Positions 1-61,535 of a DNA stretch of 64,000 bases are shown one piece after another; position 1 is the first letter of the stretch; each line of letters starts with the position of its first letter. The DNA is from a virus. The stretch is from the IMG/VR virus record IMGVR_UViG_3300036781_000236, positions 23,999 through 87,998 of that record; one strand, written 5' to 3'. Below the pieces are notes generated by a model. The model made no database searches and was not told the origin of the DNA. It worked only from the letters and a program-made list of their open reading frames with translations. Position numbers and translations under genes: made by a program.

Positions 1-32
1 TCACGCCCGCGTGAGAGGCCAGCTATACGAAG

Positions 33-119
33 CGGAGGAAGTCGGGATCGAACCGACACAGCCCTTACAGGCCATCGCCCTTTTCGAGAGGGGTAAGCAC
101 GCCAGCCTTGCGTTCCTCC
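33..119 (-). tRNA. tRNA-Ser (CGA)
   Basis: Acceptor GGAGGAA/TTCCTCC, discriminator G, anticodon loop CT-CGA-AA, long variable arm, T-arm GTCGG-TTCGATC-CCGAC. Confidence 0.85.
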
Positions 120-123
120 AAGG

Positions 124-735
124 CGGCGGGAGTGGGATTCGAACCCACGCACCCCGAAGGGCCTAGCGCGCTAGCAACAGAAGTCTCTCTAAGAGACACA
201 CTCAAGCGTGTAATCATTGATCTTACGAACTACCAGAAGATTTCGTGTAATCTCAGCGTGGTGATTCGGACAAATAGCAAACATGTTACCTACCTCGTAT
301 TTACCGCCGTCTTTACCAGGAACAAGCCTATGGATATCAAAGGTTTTAGAATACTCGCACCCTTCAATCATGCAATATGTGAAGAGAAACCTTTCTGACA
401 AAAAATCTAAACGGCGTGTTGAATCATTTCTTGCTGGACGTTCTCTACCTCTTGTTGGTCTTTGTCGCTTAGCGACACAACTCTTACTACAAAACCGTGA
501 CTTTTTTGAAAAGGGCGAAAACTCCTTATCGCAATTCTCACATCTCTTCGTTGGGAGACGGCGTCGCAACCCATCGCATGCCTTTGAGCAATAGACATTT
601 CGGCTAATGACTAACTGACTAGGACGCCTATAAATAGGCGTACTACATACCGAGCACACAGTATTGGGTGTTCTCATCGTCTGCTGTGCCATAGTGTTTC
701 AGCCGTGCCCTCTTGAACCACTTGAGTACCCCGCC
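124..735 (-). tRNA. Split tRNA-Ser (probably GCT): 5' half about 704-735, 3' half about 124-177, interrupted by an HNH ORF
   Basis: 5' half GGCGGGG-TA-CTC-AAGTGGTTCAA-GAG-G-GCACG; 3' half TTGCTAG-CGCGC-variable arm-GTGGG-TTCGAAT-CCCAC-TCCCGCC-G; the two acceptor strands pair. Confidence 0.7.
189..692 (-). CDS. HNH endonuclease with Cys-rich zinc modules, inserted in a tRNA
   Basis: CSVC..YCSKAC and CENC..FCSKSC modules; DIHRLVP-GKDGG-Y..GN...ICPNHH HNH core; AT-richer than flanks. Confidence 0.8.
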   Translation of the reverse strand: MAQQTMRTPNTVCSVCSTPIYRRPSQLVISRNVYCSKACDGLRRRLPTKRCENCDKEFSPFSKKSRFCSKSCVAKRQRPTRGRERPARNDSTRRLDFLSERFLFTYCMIEGCEYSKTFDIHRLVPGKDGGKYEVGNMFAICPNHHAEITRNLLVVRKINDYTLECVS

Positions 736-830
736 GAGAACGGCTATGTGGTGCGGGTACTCATGAGCGGCACATAGTCGGGATGGTACCACGCTTGCGG
801 TGCCCCACCCCTATGTGTAGGGTAGCAACC

Positions 831-1682: not shown

Positions 1683-1724
1683 ACGTCACGCGGGCGTGAC
1701 AGTCCTGCTATACGATGCTGGTTC

Positions 1725-1807
1725 GCGCGAGTGGTGGAACGGCATACACGATGCGCTCAAAACGCATTGCCCTTCGGGGCTTGAGGGTTCGAATCCCTCC
1801 TCGCGCA
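1725..1807 (+). tRNA. tRNA-Leu (CAA)
   Basis: GCGCGAG/CTCGCGC acceptor, ATGCG-CTCAAAA-CGCAT anticodon arm, long variable arm, GAGGG-TTCGAAT-CCCTC. Confidence 0.92.
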
Positions 1808-8451: not shown

Positions 8452-8509
8452 CTCAACCAGCGGTCGAGTGTTGTCACGCGGGCGTGACGGCATGTATCCT
8501 GCTATGCGA
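8452..8509 (+). promoter_or_regulatory. Promoter with C, A and B motifs
   Basis: CTCAACC-agc-GGTCGAG, 5 bp, TCACGCGGGCGTGA; TTGTCA-18-TATCCT; ATG at 8504. Confidence 0.65.
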
Positions 8510-9684: not shown

Positions 9685-9752
9685 CCACCCTTGACTTCGT
9701 ATAGCAGGGTCGGTACGCTTTCCGGCGTCACGATCCAACCAATCTAGGAGGG
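9685..9752 (+). promoter_or_regulatory. Sigma70-type promoter with motif B in spacer and conserved leader
   Basis: TTGACT-tcgtatagcagggtcgg(17)-TACGCT; leader GTCACGATCCAACCAA..GGAGG. Confidence 0.8.
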
Positions 9753-10583: not shown

Positions 10584-11291
10584 TCATCCAGGCCCGAGCG
10601 TCCAATCCACATACAGGGCGCAGTCATCCATGGGGAAGCACACGGCGACACGGCCTGGGTCCACACCCAATCGGTGCTTCTTCCCGAGCAGCGACTGCAC
10701 CAGGTCGGGATGCTGCACGAGGGACGGGACCGACCCGAGCGGTGTCTCGCCGTGGTCGCGGAGGAACCTGCCGATGATCTCATCATCGGCGACGAACGAC
10801 TCGGGCCACAGCTGTTCGTCCACATAACGGAGCAGGGGGTGGATGAGCCGCACGGGCCAGCACGTAGCTACGGCGCTACACCAACGTGCGGTGGTGAGTT
10901 CCGCCCACGACACCCCTCGGGCGCACGCGCGCTCCATCGCCTGCTTATGCTCGTACGGGTTCCCGCTCACGTGGAACACGAGGACCCTGTCCGGCCTCGC
11001 CACTATCGCAGCGACCAGGGCTTCCGTGAAGCCCTGACATAGCTCACCGTCGTCCTGCACGACCATGCGGTGCGTCGGTGCGCCTGCGTTCGTGAATCCG
11101 CACCCGAACCCTGGTGTCGCCTCAAGCACGGCACGGTAGGTGCGCCACGGCGACCGGCGCGGATGATCGGGGGTCGGGTCGAACACCACGTCCGCGCCTG
11201 TAGCGGCGGCGAGTGCAGCGGCCATGTCAGCGCGTGCGGGCGACGCTTGTATCCCGATGCTAACCCTCAACCCAACGTTTAGGTCTATCAC
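10584..11291 (-). CDS. Glycosyltransferase of actinophage type
   Basis: IQASPAR, MVVQDDGELC.GF, ADDEIIGRF, VPSLVQHPD motifs; lies in structural operon. Confidence 0.7.
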   Translation of the reverse strand: MIDLNVGLRVSIGIQASPARADMAAALAAATGADVVFDPTPDHPRRSPWRTYRAVLEATPGFGCGFTNAGAPTHRMVVQDDGELCQGFTEALVAAIVARPDRVLVFHVSGNPYEHKQAMERACARGVSWAELTTARWCSAVATCWPVRLIHPLLRYVDEQLWPESFVADDEIIGRFLRDHGETPLGSVPSLVQHPDLVQSLLGKKHRLGVDPGRVAVCFPMDDCALYVDWTLGPG

Positions 11292-11309
11292 GCGCGCGTG
11301 ACGGGCCTG

Positions 11310-13001
11310 CTATAGCAAGCCGAGCGCGATGAGTTCCGCGATCTCCGCCAGGTCACGGTCGTCCAACGGCTGCTCGCCGAGTCTGCGTGCCACCCACCCT
11401 GCGGGGAAGCCGCTCCCGCCGACACCAGCCGCCACAGTAGGGATCGGCGCTGGGATCGCGGTGAGGAGTGCTGCCAACGCGCCTTCCCCACCGAGCAGCG
11501 CAACCAGACGCTGGTACTCCGTCACCGTGACACTCAACGCACCCGCACCGGCGAGCGAGGCGACAAACCGCTGATACGGGGTGATCGTTGCGTTCAACGC
11601 CCCCGTGCCCATTAGGGACGCAGCGAACCGCTGGTACAAGGTCATCGACGCGGCGAGCGACCCAGCACCTACCATCGCGGCCGTGAACCGCTTATACGGC
11701 GTCACCGCAGCCGACAGAGCACCCACGCCTGCCAGTTGCGGAGCGAGCCGCTGATATGGCGTTACTGTCGCAGACAAAGCACCCGCGCCTGCGAGGGATA
11801 CGAGTATTTGAACGAGCGGGTTGTAGTCCACCGATGCCCACACGTTCGTGACACCAACCGCTTGAAGGTTGATCACGGACTGCAAATAGCCGATCTGCAT
11901 TGATGTGAGCGTCGCGGCTGTCCACGCGCCACCGTCCGGGTCCAGGTACGTGACCAACGGGTAGTACGACGCCCCTGGCTGTGTCGGGTTCGTCGTCCAC
12001 GTCACCGTGTTCGGAGCCAACGACGCCGACATAGCCTTCGTGCCACCACTTGTCTTCTCGATCTGCACCTTCACCGCCGCCGTCGCATCCGCACCAACAA
12101 GGTCAGCGATCCTGCCGCCAACGCACAGCGTGTTGATCGTGTCGAGTGACCCGACCCCAGACGCCCCGACCGCGAACAGGTCGCTCGCGTTCAAAACCGC
12201 AGACGCGTTATACGAGGTCGCGTCGTCCGGCGGCACCTCATTCACCCTAGTCCAGTTATTCGCTGACCCAGCCGTACCTCCCACTTGCACAGGGAACGTG
12301 TTGCTATCACCTGGCGCTGCGGGATGAAGATGGATGATCTTTCCCGGCCCGCACCACGAGTTCTGCACTGACCCTGTAGCGTCATTCACGGCAAGATCGT
12401 CTGCGTACATCACTCCCTGAGTTACTGTAGAGTTAGGCAATCCAACCTGAAATCTCGCCGTAGAACCAGCAACATTGTTAACACCAGACCCAATCACGAT
12501 TCCAGCCGTACCTGGATCGTTACCTGACGTTCCACAATCTGTATATCTCGCCTCATATGTACACGGAGAAACAGTGGCATCTACCTTGAACTCAATACGA
12601 TACCAATGTCCTACCTGAACAATACCGTTAGCGGTATTACCAATGATAGTTCCACCTGTCTGCTGCAAGAAAAGAGCGCCGTTTCCGTTAGTTGCAATGC
12701 TTCCCTGTGCTCCACCTCCTATCGCAGCCCATTGTGCAAATATCTTACGGTTTCCTCCCTCTGAAATAAGAGTGTCGAACAATACATATGCTCTAGAGTA
12801 GAAAACCGCGGATTGGTTCGTCTTAGCAAACGCCCAGTTGATTGTCTGAGCAGCACCAGAAGGCGCGAACTTCCAAGACGCCAGTCCTGACCGAACTTTT
12901 GCGGCTGTCGTAGAGATCGTTACACCAGCAGAAACGGTGTCTGCTTCAACACCTGCGGTGGCGCTCTGAAGTTCTGCTCCGCTTTGCAGGAGACGGGCCA
13001 T
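11310..13001 (-). CDS. Virion structural/fibre-like protein with C-terminal 20-aa repeats
   Basis: Beta-rich lectin-like N-terminal part (GHWYRIEFK, YADDLAVND); 5-6 repeats like AGAGALSATVTPYQRLAPQL. Confidence 0.6.
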   Translation of the reverse strand: MARLLQSGAELQSATAGVEADTVSAGVTISTTAAKVRSGLASWKFAPSGAAQTINWAFAKTNQSAVFYSRAYVLFDTLISEGGNRKIFAQWAAIGGGAQGSIATNGNGALFLQQTGGTIIGNTANGIVQVGHWYRIEFKVDATVSPCTYEARYTDCGTSGNDPGTAGIVIGSGVNNVAGSTARFQVGLPNSTVTQGVMYADDLAVNDATGSVQNSWCGPGKIIHLHPAAPGDSNTFPVQVGGTAGSANNWTRVNEVPPDDATSYNASAVLNASDLFAVGASGVGSLDTINTLCVGGRIADLVGADATAAVKVQIEKTSGGTKAMSASLAPNTVTWTTNPTQPGASYYPLVTYLDPDGGAWTAATLTSMQIGYLQSVINLQAVGVTNVWASVDYNPLVQILVSLAGAGALSATVTPYQRLAPQLAGVGALSAAVTPYKRFTAAMVGAGSLAASMTLYQRFAASLMGTGALNATITPYQRFVASLAGAGALSVTVTEYQRLVALLGGEGALAALLTAIPAPIPTVAAGVGGSGFPAGWVARRLGEQPLDDRDLAEIAELIALGLL

Positions 13002-18184: not shown

Positions 18185-18245
18185 CCACCCTTGACTTCGT
18201 ATAGCAGGCTAGGTATGGTTGGGGAGTCACGATCCACCAAGGAGG
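18185..18245 (+). promoter_or_regulatory. Sigma70-type promoter with motif B in spacer (near copy of 9685-9752)
   Basis: TTGACT-tcgtatagcaggctagg(17)-TATGGT; leader GTCACGATCCACCAAGGAGG. Confidence 0.8.
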
Positions 18246-18251
18246 CACACC

Positions 18252-21066: not shown

Positions 21067-21271
21067 CTGGACGCCCAACCCTAAACCTCTACTTGACCCT
21101 CATCACGCGGGCGTGATTCGCCCATCACCGCAGCCTGCAACCGGCGAAGCTCGGATGCCTTCACCACTTCCTCGCCACCAGACTCGTCCCACGCCAATGC
21201 GCCGCCATGACCGCGCTGCTCTTTGACGACAGCCTCGGCGTTCGCGCAACGCGTCTCACGTGTCATGTCCA

Positions 21272-24023: not shown

Positions 24024-24089
24024 CTCGCCCTCCTTGCCCATCACGGGCGGTAGTGGAACCCGCAGACCGTATCACGCCCGCGTGATGGC

Positions 24090-29403: not shown

Positions 29404-29476
29404 TGCCCGCATCGTATAGCAGGCTTCGGGTGGGGTCAACTCTCAACCAACACCCGAGACTTTCACGCGGGTGTGA
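29401..29476 (-). promoter_or_regulatory. Leaderless promoter with A, C and B motifs
   Basis: TCACACCCGCGTGA..GGTTGAGAG-TTGACC-17-TACGAT-7 nt-ATG. Confidence 0.8.
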
Positions 29477-30844: not shown

Positions 30845-30845
30845 G

Positions 30846-32886: not shown

Positions 32887-32940
32887 AGCAGCGACGCTAT
32901 CACGCGGGCGTGATAGCACTGCTATACGAAGTTCGTCTAG

Positions 32941-37853: not shown

Positions 37854-38069
37854 TCACGGCGCTCCGAACACCTGCTCGATAGCAGCGATGGTCTCGTCGT
37901 TCAGCGGCAGGAATCTGTCTGCTGCTTCGAGCACGTCCCCGTCGTGCAGGATCATCTCGCGTGGTGTCCACTCGCCGGTCGCGCCGTCCAGGTAGCAGAT
38001 CAGCACTCCTGGCGATCCCTCGGATCGAACCTCGGCGGTTTCTGCGTCTAGTGCAGTCGCTGTGATCAT
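37854..38069 (-). CDS. Hypothetical protein, leaderless
   Basis: ATG 7 nt after TACGAT. Confidence 0.6.
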   Translation of the reverse strand: MITATALDAETAEVRSEGSPGVLICYLDGATGEWTPREMILHDGDVLEAADRFLPLNDETIAAIEQVFGAP

Positions 38070-38142
38070 GCCGCCTATCGTATAGCAGGGAACCTGCCTG
38101 GGTCAACTCTCAACCCGTGGTCGAGGCATCACGCGGGCGTGA
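38067..38142 (-). promoter_or_regulatory. Leaderless promoter with A, C and B motifs
   Basis: TCACGCCCGCGTGA-tgc-CTCGACC-acg-GGTTGAG-ag-TTGACC-18-TACGAT-7 nt-ATG. Confidence 0.8.
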
Positions 38143-38738: not shown

Positions 38739-39395
38739 TCACAGCGGCTTGTTGCGTGGGATAACGGACAGGTCATACCTGGCGCAGATCGCATCGTAGG
38801 TCGCGGTGCGCACCGCCGCTGGTTGGAGGTTGCGTCCGTCGGGGTTGCGGGTAGCGCAGTAGACCGCATCGGGGACAGACACCAGCCGTGCCCCCCTGAT
38901 CGCCATAGCCACGAACAACGCGAAGTCCTCGTAGATCGGCCATTCGTCGCTGAACCCACCAACCTCAACGAACAGGGTGCGTGGGACGGCGGTGCCGATA
39001 CATGCGCAGTTGACTTGGGGCCAGCGGTCCCAATCCGGGATGCTCGGCACGGTGAGGCAGATCCCGTCGGGTTCAACCAAGCCCATCGCGGGCACGAAGA
39101 TGGGTTCGCCCCAGAACGGCCCGTTGTCTTGGTCGTCCCACCATGCTGCACGGATCGCGTCCACGTACCCGTCGCACAGGGCGTCGTCTGCGTCCAGGTG
39201 GATCAGCATGTCGCCCGTAGCTTGAGCGGCAAGTGCGTTGCGGGCTGCGGCGACACCCATGTCTGGGTAGTGCGCGATGAGCACCTCATCCGCGCCTTGG
39301 CCTTCCGTGCTCGGCACGGCATGGGCGTAGGCCATGTCCTCCCACCGCCGATCGCCACACGTAGCCACGACGATGCTGACGCTCGGCCCGTTCAC
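38739..39395 (-). CDS. Glycosyltransferase family 2
   Basis: VSIVVAT, AAARN, LIHLDADD, VGGF..W..YED. Confidence 0.85.
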   Translation of the reverse strand: MNGPSVSIVVATCGDRRWEDMAYAHAVPSTEGQGADEVLIAHYPDMGVAAARNALAAQATGDMLIHLDADDALCDGYVDAIRAAWWDDQDNGPFWGEPIFVPAMGLVEPDGICLTVPSIPDWDRWPQVNCACIGTAVPRTLFVEVGGFSDEWPIYEDFALFVAMAIRGARLVSVPDAVYCATRNPDGRNLQPAAVRTATYDAICARYDLSVIPRNKPL

Positions 39396-39560
39396 CCTGC
39401 TATGTCTATCACGCGGGCGTGAACGTTCACAACAGGTTCCACACGTGAGCGATCTCACCGATCACGATGACCGTCGACACGAGCTTCGCGGTATCGAACA
39501 CGAACCCTGCGACCTCGACCACCCGGCGGAATCGACGCCAATGAGCACGCAGTCGCGTGG

Positions 39561-43986: not shown

Positions 43987-44205
43987 TTATGCCTGAGCCC
44001 GCATCTTCCGCGCCTCGCGCATGATCTTCCGTACAGCTGCGTTGTCGTAGGATTCGATGTCCCACTCCTCGCCGCCGTAGTCCTTGCAGAAGCGGTCGAT
44101 GAACTCCTCAGTGGAGAGCCGTTCGTCACCGAACCAGTCGAGGGTATTTAGGATCATCGGCTCCATTTCTGGGGTGATGTCCTCGGCTGTGGTGAGCACT
44201 CTCAT
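43987..44205 (-). CDS. Hypothetical protein, leaderless
   Basis: ATG 6 nt after TACGAT. Confidence 0.65.
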   Translation of the reverse strand: MRVLTTAEDITPEMEPMILNTLDWFGDERLSTEEFIDRFCKDYGGEEWDIESYDNAAVRKIMREARKMRAQA

Positions 44206-44282
44206 ACCCCCATCGTATAGCAGGGTAGCGGCATGTCAAGTCTCAACCTTAGGTCGAGGCCCGTCACGCGGGCGTGACGGGC
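44203..44282 (-). promoter_or_regulatory. Leaderless promoter with A, C and B motifs
   Basis: 24-bp near-palindrome GCCCGTCACGCGGGCGTGACGGGC, CTCAACC-tta-GGTCGAG, TTGACA-16-TACGAT. Confidence 0.8.
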
Positions 44283-44287
44283 GTGGC

Positions 44288-47671: not shown

Positions 47672-48196
47672 CTACCGCGTCAAGCGGCGGAGCGTGGCGA
47701 TAGCGCGCTGCGCGCGAACCAGATCGCGGCCTCGCATGACACGGATACGTTCGACCAGTGCTTCACGGTTCCGTACCTCCGCTTCCCATCGCTCCGTCAT
47801 CGCGCCCAACGCCATCACCAAGGACTGGATGCGGCGGCGGGACTCACGGTTCGACGCGCCATGCCCGAGTGCTTGCAGCGACAGCAGCTGGGCGCGCTGC
47901 TCCTTGATACGTCGTTCCAGGCGGTGCGCGTAGTTCTCCCACGTCTCCCCTGTCCGCATCTGGTGCTCCGGCATGAAGTCGCTGCCGTGACCGCTGACGG
48001 GGTTCGAGGACAAATGCCATCCTTCGCAAACCCGGCACACGTAGAAGTGCGTCTCGGCGTCCTTCCCGTCAGGGTGTTCTAGCCGGTAGCCACGCACCCG
48101 CACCAACGCGGCGAGCGCAGCGGCCTCGGTGTCGTACCTCACCTTGCCGGTGTTGCACCCGCCCGTCTCTGTCCGCTTACCCATAGCCGCCATCAT
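47672..48196 (-). CDS. Hypothetical zinc-finger/coiled-coil protein
   Basis: C.TGKVRY...Y.C..C.GWHLSS. Confidence 0.6.
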   Translation of the reverse strand: MMAAMGKRTETGGCNTGKVRYDTEAAALAALVRVRGYRLEHPDGKDAETHFYVCRVCEGWHLSSNPVSGHGSDFMPEHQMRTGETWENYAHRLERRIKEQRAQLLSLQALGHGASNRESRRRIQSLVMALGAMTERWEAEVRNREALVERIRVMRGRDLVRAQRAIATLRRLTR

Positions 48197-48237
48197 ATAG
48201 CAGGCTTTGTCACGCGCGCGTGACGGACATCAGACGC

Positions 48238-48265
48238 AATGCGGGCACCCGAAGGTGCCCGCATT
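48238..48265 (-). terminator. UUCG hairpin terminator
   Basis: 12-bp stem AATGCGGGCACC/GGTGCCCGCATT. Confidence 0.75.
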
Positions 48266-51652: not shown

Positions 51653-53911
51653 TCAACCCAACACATCCCACAAATCCATCTGGCCGCTCTCAACCACCGA
51701 CTCCTTCTCACGCTCCGCTGCATCCCGCGCGTACATCACCGCGAGCGCATCCTCACCATGCTCCGCCCAAAACGCGACCCGTGCTTCTGCGACAGCCATG
51801 TAGTCCTGCTCACGCTCAATCCCGATGAACCGTGCCCCCTCAAGAACCGCCGCGCAACCCGTCGACCCCGACCCCATGAACGGGTCCAACACCGTCCCCC
51901 CAGGTGGCGTGACAAGACGGATCAGGTACCGCATCAAGTCGATGGGCTTCACGGTCGGGTGATGATTCGCACGCGCCGTCGCGCCACGAAGCCGCGGATT
52001 ATCCGCCGCAACCTTCCGTCCGTCAGTCCAAACAGAGGCTGCGTCTGCCTCAAGACCAGCACTGCGCTCCGCGCGGCTGACTTTAGGGCAGTAGAAGAAC
52101 CGCGACGCCCCTCCCATGTCGTCGTACTCCGCACCCGTCGAAGTCATGCCCCACCCATCGCCCGGAGCGGCAGAGGCGCGCGGCGCGCCGATACGGCTGA
52201 CCGACTCCCCGGTCTGCGCGTCGAGGATCACGCCAGCCTCGGCGTCGAGGATCACGTTCGCGGGCCAGCGACCGCTATTAAGTTCCTCTGTGGTACATGC
52301 GCCATACTCTCCATACACCTGATTCGTGCGGATGCCGTCACCAATCGGAAGATCGCGAGTACCTCCATTAGTACCAATCCTGCACGCGTCGATGTTGAGC
52401 GCCCCAGTGCCGTGCGCGAGGACGTTCGCGGCGACAGTCCCTATCAGTGGCTTGCGTGCGACGACGATCGGCTCGAACGCCGGTTCAGGACTTGCGTCGG
52501 CTGCGGTGGTAGCAGTCTGGCCCGCAGAACTTGCCACCGCCAGGACGCCTGAACTCACGTCCGCAACCTGCGCAAGTGCTGACGCCACCGCGAGCGCGAT
52601 GGGCTCGATAGCAGTCGCGGGAGCAGAAGCACTCAGGATGTCGAGCCACTTCGTCCATTCGACGCTCGAAGGAGCGTCCACATTCTGTGCATAGCACGGT
52701 TGCCCAACGGTCAGGCACTCGCACACTGGCATGGTGGTCGGCGATGTGAGCGGCGCGAGTAGTGAGTTCAAGGTTCTCAAGGCGGTTGTCGTGCTTGATG
52801 CCGTTGAGGTGGTGGACATTCTCGTCTGTGTTGAGAGGTCGGCCAAGATGCTGCTCCATGACTTGACGATGTTCGAGCACGTTGCGGCCAGCGCCAGTGA
52901 GTTGTACGTACCCGTCCGCTCGGATTCGTCGGGTGACATGACCGTTGCGACACTCACGCGAGCAGAAACGCACCATGCCGCGTGCGGCCCGCGAAGACTT
53001 GACAAGGAAGGATTCACCGCACGCTTCGCAGGTGTGAGTGCTAGCCATAGAAGTGCCGCGAGACCATGGTGGATAGTGTTGACTTCATCCCAACATGGTA
53101 CCGGACTAAACGGCTTTTGAGCCCATACGACTGGCTCGTGCGCAGGTTTGAGCGCTGTTCCCCAGCCCTGCCACTCGCGGGCGGCGCTGGTGTACGGAGA
53201 CGTGATCGGAACAACGCGTGTCGCGCCTGTCCCTCCGTGCGTTTCGCCCGCGAATCCAAGGCGGGACTCCGATGTGTCGACCATCTCCGCCACGCCGATT
53301 ATCTCTCTTGCTTTGAAGTCCTGAGACTCGACGGTTCGTTCAGCGACTAGCCTCTCGATCTCGGCGGGAACCGCCGGAAGGTACGGTCGAAGAAGATCAA
53401 ATAGATCAGCCGTCGCGACGCTCGGCTGAGTCGGGTGGGTCGTGAGGTGATGCCCCATGTCCGTCCCAGTGATCTCGTTCACCCGTTGCGGAGTCATGTG
53501 CTCGCGTAGCCATGTCTGGAACGTGCGTGCTCGATCCAGCCGTTCCACCGACGCATCGAGCTTGTCGATCCCCTTTGATACATCAAGGCTTTTGGGAAAT
53601 CCTGAGCCGAACATCCAAGCGATCTGGTCGCGTATATCGAATCCAGCGTCCTCGATAGCGACGGCGATCCGATGAACTGTGCGGGTGCCACCAAACGCCA
53701 ACAGATGGCCGCCAGGCTTCAGCACACGGAGAGCAGCCTCCCACGTTTTCGGATCGAACGCGACCCCAGAACTGTCCCACGATTTTCCCATGAACCCGAG
53801 TTCGTACGGCGGGTCGCACACGACCGCGTCAACGGATTCCGGTTCGATCGCAGCCATCGCTTCGACGCAGTCGCCGAGGATCAGCCGGGGGGTGAAATCG
53901 GTGCCCGTCAC
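51653..53911 (-). CDS. N6/N4 DNA methyltransferase with about 200-aa insertion carrying a nested HNH gene
   Basis: DPPY, LKPGG, GSGFPKS, GRWPAN, HPTVKP, VLDPFMGSGST; KPAHEPVVWAQKP duplicated as EPAFEPIVVARKP. Confidence 0.9.
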   Translation of the reverse strand: MTGTDFTPRLILGDCVEAMAAIEPESVDAVVCDPPYELGFMGKSWDSSGVAFDPKTWEAALRVLKPGGHLLAFGGTRTVHRIAVAIEDAGFDIRDQIAWMFGSGFPKSLDVSKGIDKLDASVERLDRARTFQTWLREHMTPQRVNEITGTDMGHHLTTHPTQPSVATADLFDLLRPYLPAVPAEIERLVAERTVESQDFKAREIIGVAEMVDTSESRLGFAGETHGGTGATRVVPITSPYTSAAREWQGWGTALKPAHEPVVWAQKPFSPVPCWDEVNTIHHGLAALLWLALTPAKRAVNPSLSSLRGPHAAWCVSARVSVATVMSPDESERTGTYNSLALAATCSNIVKSWSSILADLSTQTRMSTTSTASSTTTALRTLNSLLAPLTSPTTMPVCECLTVGQPCYAQNVDAPSSVEWTKWLDILSASAPATAIEPIALAVASALAQVADVSSGVLAVASSAGQTATTAADASPEPAFEPIVVARKPLIGTVAANVLAHGTGALNIDACRIGTNGGTRDLPIGDGIRTNQVYGEYGACTTEELNSGRWPANVILDAEAGVILDAQTGESVSRIGAPRASAAPGDGWGMTSTGAEYDDMGGASRFFYCPKVSRAERSAGLEADAASVWTDGRKVAADNPRLRGATARANHHPTVKPIDLMRYLIRLVTPPGGTVLDPFMGSGSTGCAAVLEGARFIGIEREQDYMAVAEARVAFWAEHGEDALAVMYARDAAEREKESVVESGQMDLWDVLG
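52485..53048 (-). CDS. HNH endonuclease nested off-frame in the methyltransferase
   Basis: CEAC..FCSREC, EHRQVMEQHLGRPL...ENVHHLNGIKHDNRLENLEL, further FCS/FCG zinc modules. Confidence 0.88.
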   Translation of the reverse strand: MASTHTCEACGESFLVKSSRAARGMVRFCSRECRNGHVTRRIRADGYVQLTGAGRNVLEHRQVMEQHLGRPLNTDENVHHLNGIKHDNRLENLELTTRAAHIADHHASVRVPDRWATVLCTECGRSFERRMDEVARHPECFCSRDCYRAHRARGGVSTCAGCGREFRRPGGGKFCGPDCYHRSRRKS

Positions 53912-54111
53912 GCCCGCGTGAGAACAGTGCTATACGAACGCACGGTTCAGGCGCTCCGCCGCCTTACGACACACCCCACGACAATACTTCCGCCTATCCT
54001 CGAACGACCGCGGCGCGAACTCCGCATCACAGAACTCGCAGCGACGCACAGCGAGTCTCCGGCGGCGCGCCAGGTCGATCAGTTCCCGCACCCGTTGCCG
54101 CTGCCACGCGT

Positions 54112-55093: not shown

Positions 55094-55655
55094 GACTGCG
55101 CGAACGGTGTCGCGGCGAACGGCGAAACGATCCACGTGCCCGTCTCGCACACCCGGCCGCCAGGCTGCACGTCAAGTACCCCGCAGATCGACTCCCCCTC
55201 GTCCGTGAGCACCACGAGCGCGACACCGACCGCGCCTGGGTCGGCGCACGCGCACACCACTGCCAAGTCCGCGCCGTCCCACTTATACAACCTGTACCTG
55301 TACGCGGGATTGTCGCGCGGCCATAGATCGTCTGTCGTCAAACGCGTCAGGTCGGTCACGCGGGCTTCTCCTGCTGCACCGTCAACCGTGCATCCGCGAA
55401 CGCGAACGCCCTCGTCAGAGCGTCATGCGTCGCGTTCAAACCCGCCATCGCCGCCACGATCTCCGGGGCCAACTCAGGATCGAGGGCAACGAGCGCCTGC
55501 AACGAGTCCAGGGTGTGACGGGTGTAGGTCAGCGACCCGAGGAGACGTTCGGAGCAGCGCGCGTACAGCAGCAGCTGCTCCATCCTCAACCGGATCAGAT
55601 CCTCCGCTTCGGTCATACCCCCATCGTATAGCAGGGAACGTGGGAGCGCAAGTGT

Positions 55656-56009: not shown

Positions 56010-56108
56010 AAGGCATCTAGCTATACGATGCCCATAGCATCGGATAGCAAACCTCGACCTGAGGTAGACGGTCATCACGTGGGCGTGAAACCCGGAGGAG
56101 AGTTCCGG

Positions 56109-56756
56109 TTACCCGTTCAGTTGCTGCGCGGCGAGCATCAACGCAGCCAGAACACTCTCGGACGTACCCGACGTGCCGCGCTCGCGTGCAACGATGCCCA
56201 ACCAAATCTCTGCTTGCGCGAAGTCCGCCTCGCTATACACCAGCACGAGTTCCTTCAAGCCAGGATCGCGGTGCTCGCGCTTACCGCTCTTCGCATCGAT
56301 CACCGCAGGACCGGTCTCATCGAGCTTCTGCAAGCGTTTCAAAGCAGCGTCAAGATCCGAGTCCGCGAAGCCTGTACCGCTAAGACCGTCGTCCATCTCC
56401 GCGAGCAACGCCAGTTGATCCGTTAGAAGCGCGTCATCGAACGCACCTGCGGCAGCGGTTCCGTTATCGGCCACGTTGTAGGCGAGTCGTTCGTTGTCGT
56501 CGCGGAACTCGTTCGGGATAGCCGCTACGTGCGTCCACCCGAGTTCCTGCGCCGCCAACACAAGATGGTGTCCGCCGATGATCGTGGTGCCGTCGACCAG
56601 TATGGGACGTACTTGCCCGAAGCGTTCCAAGGACGCACGGATAGCGGGCACGTCGCCTTTGCGTGCGTTACCCGAGAACGGGTCCAACGTGTCTATAGGA
56701 ACGAGGAACTCGCTCAATGCGGACGATCCCTCCCACACCTTCGTGACGGCGGTCAT
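56109..56756 (-). CDS. ParB/Srx N-terminal domain protein
   Basis: P...NARKGDV..I..SLERFGQ.RPI, IIGGHH..AA..LGW, ADN. Confidence 0.8.
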   Translation of the reverse strand: MTAVTKVWEGSSALSEFLVPIDTLDPFSGNARKGDVPAIRASLERFGQVRPILVDGTTIIGGHHLVLAAQELGWTHVAAIPNEFRDDNERLAYNVADNGTAAAGAFDDALLTDQLALLAEMDDGLSGTGFADSDLDAALKRLQKLDETGPAVIDAKSGKREHRDPGLKELVLVYSEADFAQAEIWLGIVARERGTSGTSESVLAALMLAAQQLNG

Positions 56757-56948: not shown

Positions 56949-57428
56949 TCAGGCTACTTGCTTGCGCGGATGCTCCCGCAGCAATGCGTCGAGCAGCCCG
57001 TGCTCGGTGGCGAACTGGACGGTACAGACCGGAAGCCGCTCGAACGCCACGACGGCGTGGCGGGACGTGTGACGCATATGGTCGCTCGCGCAAAGCGCTA
57101 CAGCGTTGCGGGGGTCCCACAGCAGCGCGTGCAAGCCGAGTCGTTTCAATCGCTGCTGAGGGACGGCGTGGTGCGCCTGCAAGGGTGCGCCGTCTTCGTC
57201 CCATGCTTCCTGCTCGGTGCAGCCGCACTGCGCGCACCGTTCACCCGAGATGGCCGCACGGAACGCTGAACCCTCGACCTTCACCTGAGCGTTATCACGC
57301 GCGCGTGACGCACGCCCCTTCGCCCCGATAGGGGCTAGCTCGGTGCGTTTCAACTGGCTATCGCCCTGCGCCAACGGGGTCTTCGCCTTCAACGGCGTGC
57401 GCCGCTGCAACGGCTTACCAGGCTTCAC
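56949..57428 (-). CDS. HNH-like nuclease
   Basis: PLQRRTPL start, CAQCG, QAHHAVP, N.VALC..DH. Confidence 0.65.
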   Translation of the reverse strand: MKPGKPLQRRTPLKAKTPLAQGDSQLKRTELAPIGAKGRASRARDNAQVKVEGSAFRAAISGERCAQCGCTEQEAWDEDGAPLQAHHAVPQQRLKRLGLHALLWDPRNAVALCASDHMRHTSRHAVVAFERLPVCTVQFATEHGLLDALLREHPRKQVA

Positions 57429-57869: not shown

Positions 57870-58343
57870 TCACTCCGAGGGACCAGACGGGAGAGCCAAC
57901 TGCATCTTTGTCGGCATCGCCCCAGACACGTACGCCTCATCTATCTGGGGGCGCATCCACTCACCCACCGTCTCACCCGAAGGCAAAACGATATGGGCCA
58001 TGAACTCGTCTTCAAACAGGGTGATTTGGGCCTCGACGGCTTCCAACTTCGCTTTCACGACGAGCGCGAGCGCACGCCAGCGTTGGCGGCACGCCTGCTC
58101 CCACTCCTCCAACGCAGCGTCAGCGGTTCGGTACCCGCGCGAGTGCTGCGTGAATCGTCGGTCAGTCTTGTCGGGAAGCGGCAACTCGAACTTGATGTGA
58201 CGACCGTGCGCGCGAAACTGGATCGCTGCGCCCTTGTCGTTCCAGCCATACATGAAAGCGTCACACCCGTAGCGTTGCAAGATCCGTTCGATCTCCGCAC
58301 GGGACTTCTCGACAGAGACGGTGGTGTTCTGCGCGTAGCTCAC
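57870..58343 (-). CDS. Conserved phage protein
   Basis: YAQNTTVSVEKSRAEIE..L.RYG, RQRWRALALVVKAKLEAVE. Confidence 0.75.
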   Translation of the reverse strand: MSYAQNTTVSVEKSRAEIERILQRYGCDAFMYGWNDKGAAIQFRAHGRHIKFELPLPDKTDRRFTQHSRGYRTADAALEEWEQACRQRWRALALVVKAKLEAVEAQITLFEDEFMAHIVLPSGETVGEWMRPQIDEAYVSGAMPTKMQLALPSGPSE

Positions 58344-60327
58344 GCGAGTGTGATTTGTCCGGGATGGACGTACGGCAACGGCTCGCCGTCAAGCTCGAGC
58401 TTGACTAGCTCTGAGCGCGCGCCATCCCAACCGCACTCTCCGCACCCAACTTCACAGAAAGCGCCTGAGTCTCGCGCGACGTGGTCCCAGTCGACATCTT
58501 TCTCACCGTCTGTGGGTTCTAGGTTCTTATCGAGAGAACGAAAGCCCTGCACGAGCACGGCTTCCAAGAATCCGTCCGTTTCTTTGCACTTCGGGCAGCG
58601 GTAGGTCGACTTCGGTGTGTCCGTCATGGCTAGTACCAGTCCCCAGCACCAGTGATGTGCGCGTACTGATCACGACGATACGCCTGCGCGCTCTCAACTT
58701 TAGCGAGACGTTCCGGTGTCGGTAGATAGTGCAACTCGTCCTCCTTATACGCGCGGGGGTCGTCGTCGCTTTCGTGGTTCTCGAAGTACGAGAACCCTTT
58801 ACCCCACGTGGTGAGCCAGATCGTTTCGTGGTCTGTCGCCGGGTCGCTCTCGACACCGTGAACGTCGAACTCGCACCCAGCGCGTAGGAGCGCCCAGCAC
58901 TCACCGACCTGGAACTGTGCCGTGTAGCTGTCGAGGTCGTGCCAGTTCGTCTCCGGCACTGTCGCCTGCTCGCAGATAGCGATCAGTTCCTCCCGCGTGT
59001 AATCCGTGCGGACGGTCACAGCGACTCTCCGTTCACGACGAGACGGCCCCGAGTGTCGATACGGTCACCCACGACATGCGCGTGAGGGCACACGAACTCA
59101 CCGTACGCCACTACCCGGTACACGAAGTCGGCCCCACCTGCGCGTGTCTCAGGGTTGGTGACGCACCCGCAGATCAACGTCACTTCCACCTGTGTGTCGC
59201 GACGCGGCTTCATGCATCCTTCCATTCGGTAAGTGGCTTGAACTCTTCGCAAGAGTCAACGATAGGAATGTCCGGCCCACGGTTCATCCAGAGCGAACAC
59301 CCTGGCGTGTGACACTCTCCGCCCTTACCAGCGAGACAACCTGTGCAAAGCACAAGCGTCACTCGCACCAAGCCGAGCGTCTCTTCGAGAGGGACGCTCA
59401 TGCGCCCTCAATCCGCACGTACTGCCTTTTCGGGGTCCGGGTCTGCGCAGCCGCGACGATCACGGCGTACGCGGGATTCGCTCCCGCGATCTGCTTCGCG
59501 ACCGCCGCATTGACTTTGTAGGTGACTGTCTCCCCTACAAGCGCCTGGTAGCGCTCCGCAGGTAGCCCCGCGTCCAACAGCTTCACGAGTTCGGTGATGT
59601 CCCACGTGAGTTCCGTGTCCGCGCTCACCGAAGCTGTCACCGCCCCCAGGTGCAACGTTTTGGTGCCCTGCCGTGCGCTCTCCTCCACCAGCGCGGCTTC
59701 CAACACCGCGCGGGCGCCGTCGGCGTGACGCTTCCAGTCCCGCAGCGACGACAACGCACGCGCGACCTCCGCGGCATCATCGAGGTTGACGATCTGGCCC
59801 GTGCCGGGGAGTACGAGTTCGCGGGATTCGTTGACGGCTAGGTCGGTCACGCGGGCGTGATCTCAATCTTCGGCTCCGACTTCACCGACATCTTCCGTGG
59901 CTGCCACGCCACCTCGCTCACCGCGACGAACGTGCCGTTCACCGGATCGCTGTCTGTGTCAGCGGCCTGCATCGCGTACACCCGCAGAGCGTGGTCGCGG
60001 TCCCTGGCCTGCACATCGCCGCTAGGAACCCAGACCGCGCGCGTCTCGCCAGAATCCGGGTACACGATGTCGCTCATTTTGAACACATGGAACGTGGTGA
60101 GCGTCTTCTCAGAACCCATCGGGGTGTTCCTCCATCGTGTCGATGCTGCTGTAGCGGATCGCTCCGCCATCGTCGGTGTCGAGCCACACGTCTACCCCGG
60201 CGCTCATCGAGCCGACCAGTGAGCCGGATACCGCATCGCTGATCACGGCGAGCACGTCGTCCTTGGACTTGAATGTGTCCGCGAGTGTGAACGCGCGGCC
60301 GTTACGGGTAGTCACCCGAACTGTCAT
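58340..60327 (-). CDS. Chain of small hypothetical ORFs (58340-58627, 58630-59019, 59210-59401, 59398-59850, 59847-, 60109-60327)
   Basis: Overlapping start/stop codons. Confidence 0.55.
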
Positions 60328-60995
60328 GCTTCCTCTCCTTCGTTCAGGGCAGCCACCAACGGCTCCCACACATGCGACGGGATCAGATAGCCGTCTTCGT
60401 ACGGCTCCGCGAGTTCCGCGGCCTTATGGGCGCACCACGCGACGTGCTCGGCGGCGACCATGATCCTGTCGCGCCGCCCCAACGCGCCACCCCCACCGCC
60501 TGTGCTTTGCCGCGGGCCGTTGATCGCGGCACGCAAATCCTCACGAGTCCAGGCGTTGTCAACCGCCTTTTGCAACCACTCGTTCTGCTCATCCGGTGAC
60601 AACTTGCCAACTGGCTCATGTGTGAGCGCAGGCAGTTCGACGCGCCGCCGGGACTTCGCGATACGCGCCGACAAACTCATGTAGTTACGGAGCGTGTCCG
60701 CCGCGAGTCCTGTGACACGCGCGGCTACGTCGTAACGGTCAGGTGTCGCGCCCTCCGTAGCGGCGTAGGCGTCGTCACCGAACGAACCGACACCCCACAG
60801 CAGCCAGTCGCCCAACGCGAACGCTGACCAGCGGTGAACGTGGCCGAGGCCACGGCCGATGCTCTCCCACTGTTCGAACGACAGCTGGTGCCCTTCGAGG
60901 TCGAGTCCGACGAGGGACAGTGAGCCGTCGGGGAGGTTCGCGGCTTGCTCCAAACCAGCGAACACCGAGTTCTCACGGGTAGCGATCTCGCTCAC
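60324..60995 (-). CDS. LmbU-like DNA-binding protein
   Basis: LSFEQWESIG..L....WSAFALGDWL..G, Y..AA..TGLAADTLRNY, SRRRVEL...H..V..L...EQ.EWL. Confidence 0.7.
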   Translation of the reverse strand: MSEIATRENSVFAGLEQAANLPDGSLSLVGLDLEGHQLSFEQWESIGRGLGHVHRWSAFALGDWLLWGVGSFGDDAYAATEGATPDRYDVAARVTGLAADTLRNYMSLSARIAKSRRRVELPALTHEPVGKLSPDEQNEWLQKAVDNAWTREDLRAAINGPRQSTGGGGGALGRRDRIMVAAEHVAWCAHKAAELAEPYEDGYLIPSHVWEPLVAALNEGEEA

Positions 60996-61535
60996 AGCAG
61001 CGACTCCTGTCCTGGTTGCGCGCCGTCACGGCCGACGAACATCTTGCACTGACCGTTCCCCAACCCGTCCTCGTCACGGGGAATCAGGAGGTGGAGGATG
61101 CTGTCGGGGTTGTTGCACTCCTCGTAGTTATGGAGGGTGTGCGCCATCCAGACGGGGCACGGCGGGTCGACACCGATGTCTAGGTCGTAGTGGATGCAGT
61201 TGGTGCAGTAGTGCGCCTCGTACGCTGCGCCCTCGCTGCCGTTGGAGAAATAGCCCACTAGCTGCTCGTCTCTACGTGCTCGCCTGGAAGGAAGCCGCCT
61301 GGCGCGTTATACCGTGCCTGCACCTCGTCCCACGTCTCGGGGAACGCCGCACGGAGCTTCGCTGCGTTGGTGGAGTCGGCCTGCCTCATCGCTGCCATGA
61401 TGAGCGCGTAGAAGTCAGGCTCGTAGGTCTTGCTTAGTTCGTATTCGTAGCGGCTCACGTGACCGATGATATAGCAGGGAAGCGGGCTGGGCAACTCTCA
61501 ACCTGAGGTTGAGGCCCGTCACGCGGGCGTGACGC

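Follow-up and report, generated by a model that had tools for sequence, protein, structure and literature searches.

The window analysed here is a 64,000-nt stretch of an uncultured phage (positions 23,999 to 87,998 of IMG/VR record IMGVR_UViG_3300036781_000236), in which the minus strand carries 133 of the 148 ORF calls, with ORFs and gene starts taken from our own crude gene caller. The proteins of this phage show only low similarity (≤44%) to those of cultured phages. Short sequence boxes are scattered across the genome at intervals of roughly 3.5 kb (Table 1). Box A is a 14-bp palindrome, TCACGC-SS-GCGTGA, for which a sequence-only reading had counted about 20 copies; we find 19 in the window at no more than one mismatch (16 exact and three with one mismatch), where 0.18 would be expected; 100 shuffled sequences gave at most one. 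The whole 87,998-bp phage record holds 25 (20 exact, five with one mismatch), and a backwards-read control gave no match over the same record. The half-sites are invariant, and the central 2 bp vary between GG, CC and GC in this phage. According to our gene calls, six of the 25 copies are gene-internal and 19 are intergenic or at gene ends, compared with 19% of genome positions. The hexamer TANNNT occurs at 3 of 50 A flanks (0.13 expected).

Box B has the core CTGCTATACGA, with 13 matches in the window at up to one mismatch (0.42 expected); the genome holds 16, and 11 of them adjoin an A (within 45 nt). The A-to-B gap is 5 nt in five cases, 6 nt in one, 11 nt in one and 40 nt in three, and one further B lies upstream of its A; looser copies with two mismatches add one 5-nt and one 41-nt gap. 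When B is allowed two mismatches, seven gaps fall between 3 and 6 nt, against 0.04 expected by random relocation (maximum two in 20,000 trials). The six A-B positions listed earlier (19, 1704, 11306, 25409, 32918 and 53926) are all right; the 4-bp gap given there is 5 nt here, with B beginning one base earlier in that reading. The box comes in two variants. B1, whose last base is T (TACGAT), precedes start codons or a tRNA. In B2 the last base is A, this one T-to-A difference being shared by all its copies; B2 carries no −10 signature (no ANNNT), yet its copies are exact 11-mers. Because B2 lies beside A or within the spacer of another type of promoter (class III), occurs in either orientation relative to genes and lacks a −10 signature, it behaves like an operator, as a candidate site. 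B1 and B2 differ in function, so far as function can be read from sequence.

Box C had been described before A as CTCRACC-N3-GGTYGAG or degenerate forms. It does sit beside A at nine sites, and is truly palindromic in only 4–6 of them. Exact CTCRACC-N3-GGTYGAG occurs four times in the genome, each 3–5 nt from an A, and in none of 30 Markov simulations; at up to two mismatches there are eight copies, six adjoining an A. The sites at 21081, 57273 and 29442 are more degenerate. What is conserved is the arm farther from A (minus-strand GGTTGAG), present at all nine sites, always downstream of A and 15 nt from it in seven, and the pattern A-N15-GGTYKAG has six matches, all on the minus strand, against 0.00 expected. 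This arm abuts a TTGACC-like −35 and would be a directional element lying between A and the −35. The A-B and A-C spacings, described earlier as fixed, are indeed so far beyond chance, and the joint C-A-B arrangement reported at 11266–11317 has a second example at 8452–8509. Composites had also been placed inside ORFs, which holds for 57273, within an HNH endonuclease gene, whereas 21081 lies at a gene junction and not deep in an ORF.

Table 1. Boxes, putative promoters and candidate binder genes in the window (class assignments are predictions; B1, B2 and C as in the text).
Feature	Position	Strand	Elements
Class I cassette	61456..61532	−	A 61519-61532; C 61497-61513; −35 TTGCCC 61489-61494; B1 61467-61477 (−10 TATCAT); GTG 61456-61458
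Class I cassette	44203..44277	−	A 44264-44277; C 44242-44258; −35 TTGACA 44234-44239; B1 44213-44223 (−10 TACGAT); ATG 44203-44205; consensus matches 10/12
Class I cassette	38067..38142	−	A 38129-38142, final TGA is stop of upstream gene; C 38109-38125; −35 TTGACC 38101-38106; B1 38078-38088; ATG 38067-38069
Class I cassette	29401..29476	−	A (1 mismatch) 29463-29476; distal C arm only; −35 TTGACC 29434-29439; B1 29412-29422; ATG 29401-29403
Degenerate class I	56040..56109	−	hairpin D 56089-56109; A (1 mismatch) 56075-56088; C (2 mismatches) 56053-56069; B-like 56040-56050 without TANNNT
Class II	48182..48223	−	A 48210-48223; 6-nt gap; B1 48193-48203 (−10 TATGAT); ATG 48182-48184; strong GC hairpin just upstream
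Class II	1686..1725	+	A 1686-1699; 5-nt gap; B1 1705-1715 (−10 TACGAT 1711-1716); tRNA-Leu from 1725
Class III	9691..9719	+	TTGACT; reversed B2 9697-9707 filling 17-nt spacer; TACGCT; SD-led ATG downstream
Class III	18191..18219	+	TTGACT; reversed B2 18197-18207; TATGGT; leads to ATG at 18252
Class III	62595..62624	−	TTGACA; reversed B2 62605-62615; TAGTGT; SD-led ATG of winged-helix gene 62045-62557
Class IV	window 1	−	A abuts TAGCGT just left of window, 7 nt before tRNA-Arg array
A + B2	1..30		A 1-14; B2 20-30 (+)
A + B2	32884..32929		A 32900-32913; B2 32919-32929 (+)
Class IV	within 32884..32929	−	TAGCGT 32894-32899; 7 nt; GTG 32884-32886
Class IV-like	39393..39422	−	A 39409-39422; TAGACA; 7 nt; GTG 39393-39395
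A + B2-type box	53908..53937		A 53908-53921; B2-type 53927-53937 (+); between two minus-strand genes, without −10 signature
A + B2	25409..25438	−	A (2 mismatches) 25425-25438; 5-nt gap; B2 25409-25419
C-A-B	11266..11317		degenerate C 11266-11282; A 11288-11301; B-like 11307-11317 (+)
C-A-B	8452..8509		C 8452-8468; A 8474-8487; 11-nt gap; B-like 8499-8509 (+); divergent region, minus gene and plus gene cluster
A + distal C arm, no B	21081..21116	−	A 21103-21116
A + distal C arm	57273..57308	−	A 57295-57308
A + TANNNT	24066..24085	−	A 24072-24085 abuts TACGGT
A alone	13485-13498		gene-internal, by motif scan and gene calls
A alone (1 mismatch)	14743-14756		inside 701-aa gene
A alone	59847-59860		its own GTGA is the overlapping start/stop junction of two genes
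B1 promoter, no nearby A	55614..55651	−	TTGCGC; 17 nt; TACGAT; 6 nt; ATG 55614-55616
B-like promoter (2 mismatches)	63837..63878	−	TTGACC upstream; GTG 63837-63839, 8 nt after hexamer
Candidate binder	61536..61919	−	127 aa; two strand-helix-helix repeats, ribbon-helix-helix-like; gene ends 3 nt before an A
Candidate binder	62045..62557	−	170 aa; weak winged-helix C-terminus; class III promoter

Read on the minus strand, four sites (class I) have the layout of full host sigma-A-type promoters, in the order A, C, a TTGACC-like −35 and B as the −10, with the start codon 6–7 nt after the −10. An independent consensus scan (TTGACx, 16–18 nt, TAxxAT) calls all four, which make up half of its eight promoter calls in 40 kb. 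The spacer sequences between −35 and B are mutually unlike and the boxes themselves are kept. Among the nine B copies carrying TANNNT, six are followed after 6–7 nt by an in-frame start, and one more is followed after 8 nt by tRNA-Leu; the background for this start-codon geometry is 23 of 458 genomic TANNNT (Fisher p = 6e-7). Mycobacterial sigma-A promoters have ANNNT at −6 to −13, with TANNNT preferred and no conserved −35, and 24% of mycobacterial transcripts are leaderless (PMC6448022). The predicted geometry of B1 matches these promoters (PMC6448022).

There is in our judgement about an even chance that the boxes are promoter-operator cassettes of a probably lytic phage with a high-GC (actinobacterial-type) host. 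Host sigma-A-type promoters of four types would mark the starts of transcription units genome-wide, and two phage-specific boxes, A and B, would be overlaid on them. Class I would pair a −35 with B1 as the −10; in class II, A would replace the −35 upstream of B1; class III would have both −35 and −10, with a reversed B2 in the spacer; and in class IV the GTGA end of A together with TAGCGT would form an extended −10. The analysis shows the motifs, their statistics, their placement with respect to gene starts and a partial conservation in relatives; transcript starts, all protein binding and the sign of regulation we infer. A search of RNA runs found none that contains this phage. Relative to the inferred start point, A is centred at −65.5 to −67.5, −32.5 or −20.5 to −22.5, giving registers of about −66, −32 and −21, and a single dimeric phage regulator would have A as its operator. 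At about −66, A is by itself unable to block polymerase; a protein bound at −32 or −21 would exclude RNA polymerase, and for this reason the regulator is presumably mainly a repressor or a temporal switch. B (nnGCTATACGA) would be the asymmetric site of a second factor and, where a T follows the box, would also act as the −10 of leaderless genes. A regulatory grammar had been proposed before, and it fits the gene-boundary bias, the fixed spacings and the putative binders, although the promoter elements on the B and C sides had been missed. Three A-B2 units (window 20, 32919 and 53927) face against their flanking genes, which counts against the promoter-operator reading, as do the six gene-internal A copies and the position of A at about −66.

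Small putative DNA binders are encoded by the phage, namely an HTH_3 protein, a likely ribbon-helix-helix protein (61536–61919) and a weak winged-helix protein (62045–62557). The second had been named as a candidate and has gained support: its ten best Atlas family matches all fall in the RHH clan (scores 0.89–0.91), and its repeat pattern is present across seven aligned homologues. Its two best PDB matches are a CopG-family regulator and the Mnt repressor (E 0.15 and 0.18), and its AF2 model is poor. The winged-helix protein matches phrog_1687 (MarR-like, 4e-4), with TrmB and MarR_2 below Pfam cut-offs. The genome's only HTH_3 gene is reached from the class IV promoter at window 1 through the tRNA array, which hints at autoregulation. 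As for the other binders suggested by the sequence-only reading, 831–1682, although it has an HTH, seems to be related to homing endonucleases, 60324–60995 has Atlas leads that are unconfirmed, 56109–56756 encodes a ParB-like nuclease-domain protein, and searches with 47274–47534 gave nothing.

The boxes are partly conserved in relatives, over a thin comparative base of 5.8, 1.2 and 1.9 kb of sequence plus the substitutions listed in one variant table. Both A and the A-N5-B unit persist in a related metagenome phage, the centre of A being TG (in relatives L038 and L040), and all 11 units aligned from three phages keep A-N5-GCTATAC. A followed by TAGCGT recurs in the relatives, and the A-N5-B1 unit seen at 1686..1725 also precedes a tRNA-like start in L040. 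Among the substitutions listed for a relative's contig, none falls within 44210–44279. No C could be made out in the 5.8 kb examined from a relative, which speaks against the promoter-operator reading.

In another reading, A alone is an operator, with B and C kept as parts of one promoter cassette copied round the genome and the B2 copies as disabled or decaying −10s that bind nothing. This would fit the behaviour of B1 as a plain −10, the C arm abutting the −35, and the near-identity of the four class III copies over some 50 nt, which is what duplicated units should show. Part of the B2 conservation could be inheritance in a duplicated promoter unit, especially for the class III copies. We nevertheless regard this reading as unlikely, given that all B2 copies share the same single difference and are otherwise exact, that the A-N5-B spacing is constant whichever way the unit faces genes and in relatives, and that the middle bases CGA of the hexamer are conserved, where sigma A has no base preference (PMC6448022). 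A use mainly as recombination modules, with repeats kept for modular gene shuffling, has a described precedent in T4-type promoter-early stem-loop cassettes (PMC2839356), and Cluster O repeats behave likewise (PMC4351075). The B ends of two cassettes (44210, 56041) are precisely where homologous contig pieces from soil-metagenome relatives start, several HNH genes being skipped, and a 1.7-kb segment (window 1–1715) is flanked by direct A-B units. However, only two boundaries coincide, at a loose 80% threshold, the fixed start-codon registers and invariant half-sites are left unexplained, and recombination may be a side effect and not the function, all of which makes this use appear rather improbable.

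We hold it very improbable that A and C are RNA hairpins at operon ends with a part in termination, processing or stabilisation. The two boxes are inverted repeats, the upstream stop codon often falls within A or ahead of it, and a longer hairpin directly precedes A at three sites, but the consensus fold is weak (−7.8 kcal/mol) with an unfavourable covariation term, the C stem is broken at several pairs in two of nine sequences, and the A pairs are invariant and so uninformative. Furthermore, the proximal C arm is degenerate in five of nine sites, there is no Rfam family match at the boxes, and a scan for terminators gave fewer hits than it did on shuffled sequence. Little credence can likewise be given to boxes that organise or package DNA, as had been suggested, or that are sites of a host regulator. 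Dispersal at intervals of roughly 3.5 kb and an encoded ParB-like protein would suit the former, but the boxes are concentrated where genes meet and keep a fixed register with promoter elements, and annotation in relatives makes the ParB-like protein a nuclease-domain type, with no HTH detected; our analysis brought nothing in support of a packaging or organising role. Against a host regulator, A is not enriched in the 301 actinobacterial genomes searched (at most one copy each), a set from which the true host may be absent.

No integrase or resolvase was found in this phage. The stoperators of Cluster A mycobacteriophages, short intergenic operators in many dispersed copies of which some overlap promoters, resemble the boxes here. 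Stoperators, however, are asymmetric, point in the direction of transcription and are targets of the immunity repressor in temperate phages, whereas A is symmetric. The 17-bp palindromic repeat of Cluster O mycobacteriophages (the Corndog group) resembles A in its invariant arms and variable centre, its tens of dispersed copies, its short-intergenic bias and its absence from host genomes, and binding by a dimeric regulator has been proposed for it (PMC4351075). Cluster O phages also have sigma-A-like leaderless promoters, as predicted here, and share with this phage a ParB-like protein and a displaced terminase gene by methyltransferase and glycosyltransferase genes (PMC4351075). Their repeat has 7-bp arms and a 3-bp centre (PMC4351075), compared with 6 and 2 bp in A, and a search of the window for the 17-bp motif gave no match. 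Its authors located most copies away from promoters and had doubts about a transcriptional role (PMC4351075), whereas A stands in fixed register with promoter elements.

The combination of B and A recalls the Cluster K SAS/ESAS elements, an asymmetric 13-bp box with an upstream inverted repeat that recurs before many genes, with stop codons of upstream genes sometimes inside the box, as here (PMC3203893). SAS lies 3–7 bp before start codons and holds the ribosome-binding core (PMC3203893), unlike B1, which is at the predicted −10 position before putative leaderless starts, and B2, which occurs in both orientations. In plasmid RK2, two palindromic operators of the global regulators KorB and KorA are combined at mobile-element promoters, act cooperatively and include one at core promoter elements (PMC11790492); B is asymmetric, in contrast, and KorB is a ParB-family CTPase clamp (PMC11790492), whereas the ParB-like protein here looks like a nuclease-domain type. 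The T4-type cassettes are small intergenic repeats with a host-type promoter and an inverted repeat, bordering variable genes, but their stem-loops are effective terminators (PMC2839356), whereas A and C fold weakly and the sequence of A is invariant, as a protein site would be. Such putative promoter-operator cassettes in an uncultured soil phage would be of interest, though precedents exist.

The palindrome A (TCACGC-SS-GCGTGA, 14 bp), the asymmetric box B (nnGCTATACGA) and the two-armed element C (CTCRACC-N3-GGTYGAG) were proposed, in the sequence-only reading, to recur at fixed spacings, and this is borne out, with counts and gaps far above expectation. A is found at 19 sites in the window vs 0.18 expected and at 25 in the genome, with 0 in the reversed control. 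B (CTGCTATACGA, ≤1 mismatch) occurs 13 times in the window (0.42 expected) and 16 times in the genome, where 11/16 sites have an A within 45 nt. Spacings from A to B are sharply grouped at 5 nt (five cases), 6 nt, 11 nt and 40 nt (three cases), to which looser B copies add one further gap of 5 and one of 41. Seven A-B gaps of 3–6 nt are observed, compared with 0.04 expected under random relocation. Exact C has four copies, each 3–5 nt from an A, and none in 30 simulated genomes. Among the nine C positions named in the sequence-only reading, the A-distal arm (GGTTGAG, minus strand) is kept in all nine and lies 15 nt from A in seven, and roughly half have a degenerate A-near arm. Matches to A-N15-GGTYKAG number 6 vs 0.00 expected, every one of them on the minus strand; with three variants added, the C arm lies downstream of A, along transcription, in 9/9. 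The recurrence of A, B and C is real and statistically solid.

The description that suits these arrangements best is one family of promoter-operator cassettes, the functional claims resting on sequence geometry; the family would comprise host-type promoters in four layouts, a palindromic operator occupying three registers, and another box that serves two purposes. At four minus-strand sites (class I) the elements stand in one order: A, 2–4 nt, C, a TTGACC-like hexamer, 16–18 nt, B, 6–7 nt, and ATG or GTG. Indeed, an independent consensus scan called precisely these four sites as sigma-70-type promoters (4/8 calls in 40 kb), the −10 hexamer consisting of the final five bases of B and the base that follows. 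A TTGACA-like −35 hexamer 16–18 nt upstream is present at 4/4 class I sites and at the class III sites, the latter having a reversed B between −35 and −10, and is absent from class II sites (A plus B) and class IV sites (A abutting TAGCGT). An alternative −35 within the C arm was rejected, since it aligned with no −10. In mycobacteria, excerpts of a promoter-mapping study report ANNNT at −6 to −13 in 79% of mapped promoters, TANNNT as the preferred sigma-A −10, no conserved −35 consensus and 24% leaderless transcripts (PMC6448022). The predicted cassette geometry fits such sigma-A promoters, TANNNT lying about 6–8 nt before the start as gauged from start codons, not from mapped transcript starts. 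No paralogy links the products of the genes that directly follow the class I cassettes, which argues that the cassette was not copied along with its gene. A box common to the class III leaders, GTCACGrTC, is similar to one A half-site and lies about 8–18 nt past the predicted start. A strong GC-rich hairpin upstream of one class II cassette is likely a terminator lacking a T run.

B exists in two forms. In the first (B1), comprising nine B-like copies, the next base completes TANNNT (TACGAT, TATGAT, TATCAT or TACGGT); six of the nine have the in-frame start codon of a called gene 6–7 nt downstream, and in a seventh the tRNA-Leu 5′ end follows after 8 nt. Such geometry is found at just 23 of 458 genomic TANNNT sequences (Fisher p = 6e-7 for B copies). 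In the remaining well-conserved copies (B2) the next base is A (TACGAA) and no ANNNT lies inside, so that B2 is unlikely to be a −10 element. B2 either adjoins A at a 5-nt gap, in either orientation relative to the flanking genes, or is reversed and fills the spacer of another promoter type, highly uniform and present in four copies (one of them at 18191–18252), laid out as TTGACT, reversed box, 6 nt, a TAGTCT-like hexamer, a leader with GGAGG, and ATG. Because the B core is conserved beyond what a −10 needs, including the middle of the hexamer, at two positions and in both orientations, we read B as a putative protein site that an extra T makes double as a −10. A possible likeness of B2 to part of a well-known recombinase target was dropped, there being no recombinase gene and single half-sites only.

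Measured from its centre to the start codon or tRNA end, A occupies three registers: −65.5 to −67.5 in class I, −32.5 in class II (A-N5/6-B1, no −35) and −20.5 to −22.5 in class IV. Class IV sites have TAGCGT abutting the GTGA end of A, giving a TGn-plus-hexamer extended −10, and 7 nt further lies a GTG start (32884–32886) or the tRNA-Arg array; TANNNT is found at 3 of 50 A flanks vs 0.13 expected. A sites are intergenic or ≤15 nt from a gene end in 19 of 25 cases, compared with 19% of positions. In several, the preceding gene takes its TGA stop from A; one provides an overlapping GTGA start/stop, and three directly follow a longer hairpin. Thus, A stands at the junctions between successive transcription units. 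A putative protein bound to A at −32 or −21 would exclude polymerase, which favours A as an operator for a repressor or temporal switch. Besides A, B and C, a fourth element recurs: a minus-strand hairpin (ACCGGA, 6–10 nt, TCCGG) just past gene ends and directly upstream of A, which may be a terminator. Among 301 actinobacterial genomes, 21 have one copy of A and none has more, so that A is not a host-wide motif among the genomes sampled, although the true host may lie outside the 301.

Coordinates of cassette elements, candidate binders and other features (window positions unless marked otherwise)
Feature	Position	Detail
Class I promoter, predicted		TTGACA-16-TACGAT (cassette 44203-44277)
Class I promoter, predicted		TTGACC-18-TACGAT
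Class I promoter, predicted		TTGACC-17-TACGAT
Class I promoter, predicted		TTGCCC-17-TATCAT
B2 adjoining A	20, 32919, 53927, 25419, 11307; genome 5439	
ACCGGA/TCCGG hairpins	56089-56109; genome 14184-14204, 9072-9096	
GTCACGrTC boxes	9720-9745, 18220-18240, 62570-62594	
GC-rich hairpin	48228-48262	between gene 48297-48527 and class II cassette 48182-48223
HTH_3 protein	genome 22800-23084	just outside window
Tandem-repeat protein	61536-61919	AlphaFold single-sequence model poor, pLDDT 52
Neighbour upstream of tandem-repeat protein	62045-62557	weak winged-helix signal
ParB-like protein	56109-56756	
Candidate binder	831-1682	HTH plus homing-endonuclease repeat
Candidate binder	47274-47591	family searches without match
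Candidate binder	60324-60995	Atlas leads only (ParB-HTH, DUF3102, DUF6192 clusters), unconfirmed; AlphaFold single-sequence model poor, pLDDT 43.5
Large terminase	48576-50036	
Capsid maturation protease fusion	15935-18184	
Terminase displaced from portal and capsid genes	29463-39395 / 48576-50036	about 25 kb
Segment between direct A-B units	1-1715	1.7 kb
Segment across which relatives' contigs join	52273-55095	HNH genes and HNH-interrupted methyltransferase
phrog_3424 proteins	47672-48184, 63070-63354	
Hairpin after A plus TAGCGT	L038 3598-3660	
Identical record ends	63875-64000; genome 25-150	last 126 bases of record; 24-base offset

The record totals 87,998 bp, of which the window is bases 23,999–87,998, and the identity of its ends indicates that the contig wraps round (circular or terminally redundant), although labelled linear. 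Our own codon-usage ORF caller gave 148 genes, 133 on the minus strand; the caller is crude and gene starts are provisional. Judged by family searches, which found the large terminase, the capsid protease fusion, a glycosyl-/methyltransferase run, several HNH endonucleases, a ParB-like protein and seven tRNAs, this is a tailed phage of a high-GC host. Its top protein identities to cultured phages are ≤44%; a DNA-level search against cultured phages gave negligible matches and no close relative, and the cassettes used as DNA queries gave none. The record, rated 92% complete, has no match to Phage_integrase, Resolvase, sigma region 2 or WhiB, and on these absences the phage is probably lytic and dependent on host RNA polymerase; HTH_17 also has no match in the genome. 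A glycosyltransferase, methyltransferase and sugar-epimerase block, with some paralogues, lies between the terminase and the portal and capsid genes. The segment at the start of the window, amid minus-strand genes, carries tRNA-Ser, an AT-rich HNH-like ORF and a plus-strand HTH/HNH-repeat gene, and resembles an insertion with cassettes at its borders. Two proteins, one of them encoded first after the class II cassette, have in common a small cysteine-rich domain (phrog_3424), which may be a zinc ribbon.

Which proteins might read these sites is suggested by gene position and family signals. The sole HTH_3 domain in the genome (Pfam 1.4e-6) belongs to a 94-aa protein encoded downstream of a tRNA array that would be driven by the predicted class IV promoter at window 1; its place behind an A-bearing promoter suggests autoregulation and makes it the first candidate for A. 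The tandem-repeat gene ends 3 nt before an A, and its product has two strand-helix-helix repeats conserved in six metagenome homologues. Its nearest clusters in the Atlas, a source of protein-family leads, are all ribbon-helix-helix families (scores 0.89–0.91, leads only), and its two best PDB profile matches are weak (CopG-family regulator, E 0.15; Mnt repressor, E 0.18); a tandem repeat in one chain would suit the asymmetric site B. Its upstream neighbour has a predicted class III promoter in front. The ParB-like protein (PHROG ParB-like, 7e-28) resembles ParB-like nuclease-domain proteins annotated in other actinophages, with no Pfam match at 0.01, no HTH signal and no PDB sequence match, and the CTP-binding box, judged by eye against what we take to be its motif, looks absent.

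One metagenome scan and one genome scan gave 35 loci, of which L038, L040 and probably L029 alone represent true relatives; L061, located in a MAG with a single site, was rejected. L038, 5.8 kb of a 73.6-kb contig, encodes proteins 52–74% identical to four of this phage's and has four A sites, all with a TG/CA centre in place of SS; half-sites that are kept while the middle drifts are expected of a dimer reading two half-sites. It also carries A plus TAGCGT twice, one A-N5-B1 unit and a class III-like reversed B followed by TAGAGT. At one of its sites, A plus TAGCGT is followed after 7 nt by a perfect GC hairpin with a T-rich tail and then an SD-led gene, and the hairpin could be a 5′ attenuator or stabiliser. 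The order in L040, which comes from the same metagenome as L038, is TAGCGT, A, a gap, a B1-like box with TACCGT, 7 nt and a tRNA-Leu-like start, mirroring window 1686–1725. The core GCTAT and the gap are kept in 11/11 aligned A-B units from three sources. Furthermore, contigs in two soil runs come from diverged relatives; no RNA run is listed as containing this phage. One piece, covering 44210–44938, has at least 35 substitutions between 44291 and 44483 and, among the substitutions listed, none in 44210–44279, the whole cassette, which is suggestive of conservation. This piece starts at 44210 and another at 56041, in each case at the B end of a cassette, which hints that cassettes might mark mosaic borders. 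Contigs of relatives from these runs join across the HNH-rich segment, so that those relatives seem to be without its insertions. IMG/VR gave 0 matches to the A+B pattern, 24 contigs with one site each for A with G/C flanks (chance level), single sites only, among the matches listed, for TG-centre A, and none or one 35% match in protein-seeded scans. The comparative base for functional claims is thin.

The inverted repeats A and C might instead act as RNA. Their consensus fold is weak (−7.8 kcal/mol) with an unfavourable covariation term; the A pairs are invariant, the C stem is broken in some sequences, and single-mismatch A variants break the symmetry rather than keep pairing. No Rfam family matched at the cassettes, and terminator-like sites are rarer than in shuffled sequence, the A and C folds not being followed by T runs. 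Together, these observations argue that A and C are read as DNA rather than as RNA. Among DNA sites, the stoperators of Cluster A phages are asymmetric 13–14-bp sites oriented with transcription, in temperate phages with an integrase and an immunity repressor. In contrast, A is a perfect palindrome and B2 occurs in both orientations relative to genes, and Phage_integrase and Resolvase have no match in this record, rated 92% complete. In Cluster K, according to excerpts of its description, an asymmetric box and an upstream inverted repeat precede many genes, the box being at the ribosome-binding position (PMC3203893); this box (SAS/ESAS) lies 3–7 bp before the start and has a Shine-Dalgarno core, whereas A and B have no such core and the B1-to-start stretch is only 6–7 nt, with no SD. 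Repeated promoter-plus-stem-loop cassettes in T4-type phages are reported to drive modular shuffling (PMC2839356). Such cassettes join a strong host-type promoter to a stem-loop that terminates transcription; here the consensus scan calls host-type promoters, and the folds of A and C are weak and without T runs after them.

The closest printed description found for A is the 17-bp palindrome of Cluster O mycobacteriophages, which in the excerpted account has >30 dispersed copies, invariant arms and a variable centre, is absent from the hosts, and belongs to phages with leaderless sigma-A-like promoters, a ParB-like protein and a displaced terminase gene beside sugar- and methyl-transferase genes (PMC4351075). 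Here A likewise has 25 dispersed copies with a varying centre, mostly (19/25) intergenic or at gene ends, and the displaced terminase and sugar/methyl-transferase layout is similar, whereas the Cluster O motif itself (7-bp arms, 3-bp centre) gives 0 matches at ≤2 mismatches in this window. Its authors, in the same excerpts, suggest a dimeric binder and doubt that the repeat acts in transcription, since the majority of copies lie away from promoters (PMC4351075). Plasmid RK2 is described, in excerpts, as having two palindromic operators for cooperating global repressors (PMC11790492). One of these repressors, KorB, is a ParB-family CTPase with an HTH that binds its palindrome; relatives of the ParB-like protein here are annotated as ParB-like nuclease-domain proteins. 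Word searches of open-access text found no description of the A/B/C set and no box switching between operator and −10 by one base.

The furthest-reaching reading of the cassettes, which we offer tentatively and consider rather unlikely to hold, is that a lytic actinophage would use a combinatorial code of operators to run all of its gene program from host sigma-A promoters. A dimeric regulator would act on A at three helical registers, and a second factor, possibly the tandem ribbon-helix-helix protein, would act on the asymmetric site B, where a single T/A switch would make or unmake a working −10; the constant spacings, 5 bp from A to B and 15 bp from A to the C arm, would result from contacts between the bound proteins, likened to KorA-KorB cooperation on RK2. 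The chief limitation is that this phage is uncultured. Dispersed repeats of actinobacteriophages, such as the Cluster O palindromes and Cluster K start-associated sequences, have been catalogued for years with no function assigned. In this phage they line up exactly with identifiable promoter elements and with the starts of leaderless genes, and this register yields concrete, cheap predictions as to the promoter-making base of B, the repressing registers of A and the small proteins to test for binding. If true, the operator code would provide a worked example of how a phage with no sigma factor or RNA polymerase of its own times its genes on the host polymerase, and its cassettes would offer compact, portable promoter-operator parts for high-GC bacteria.
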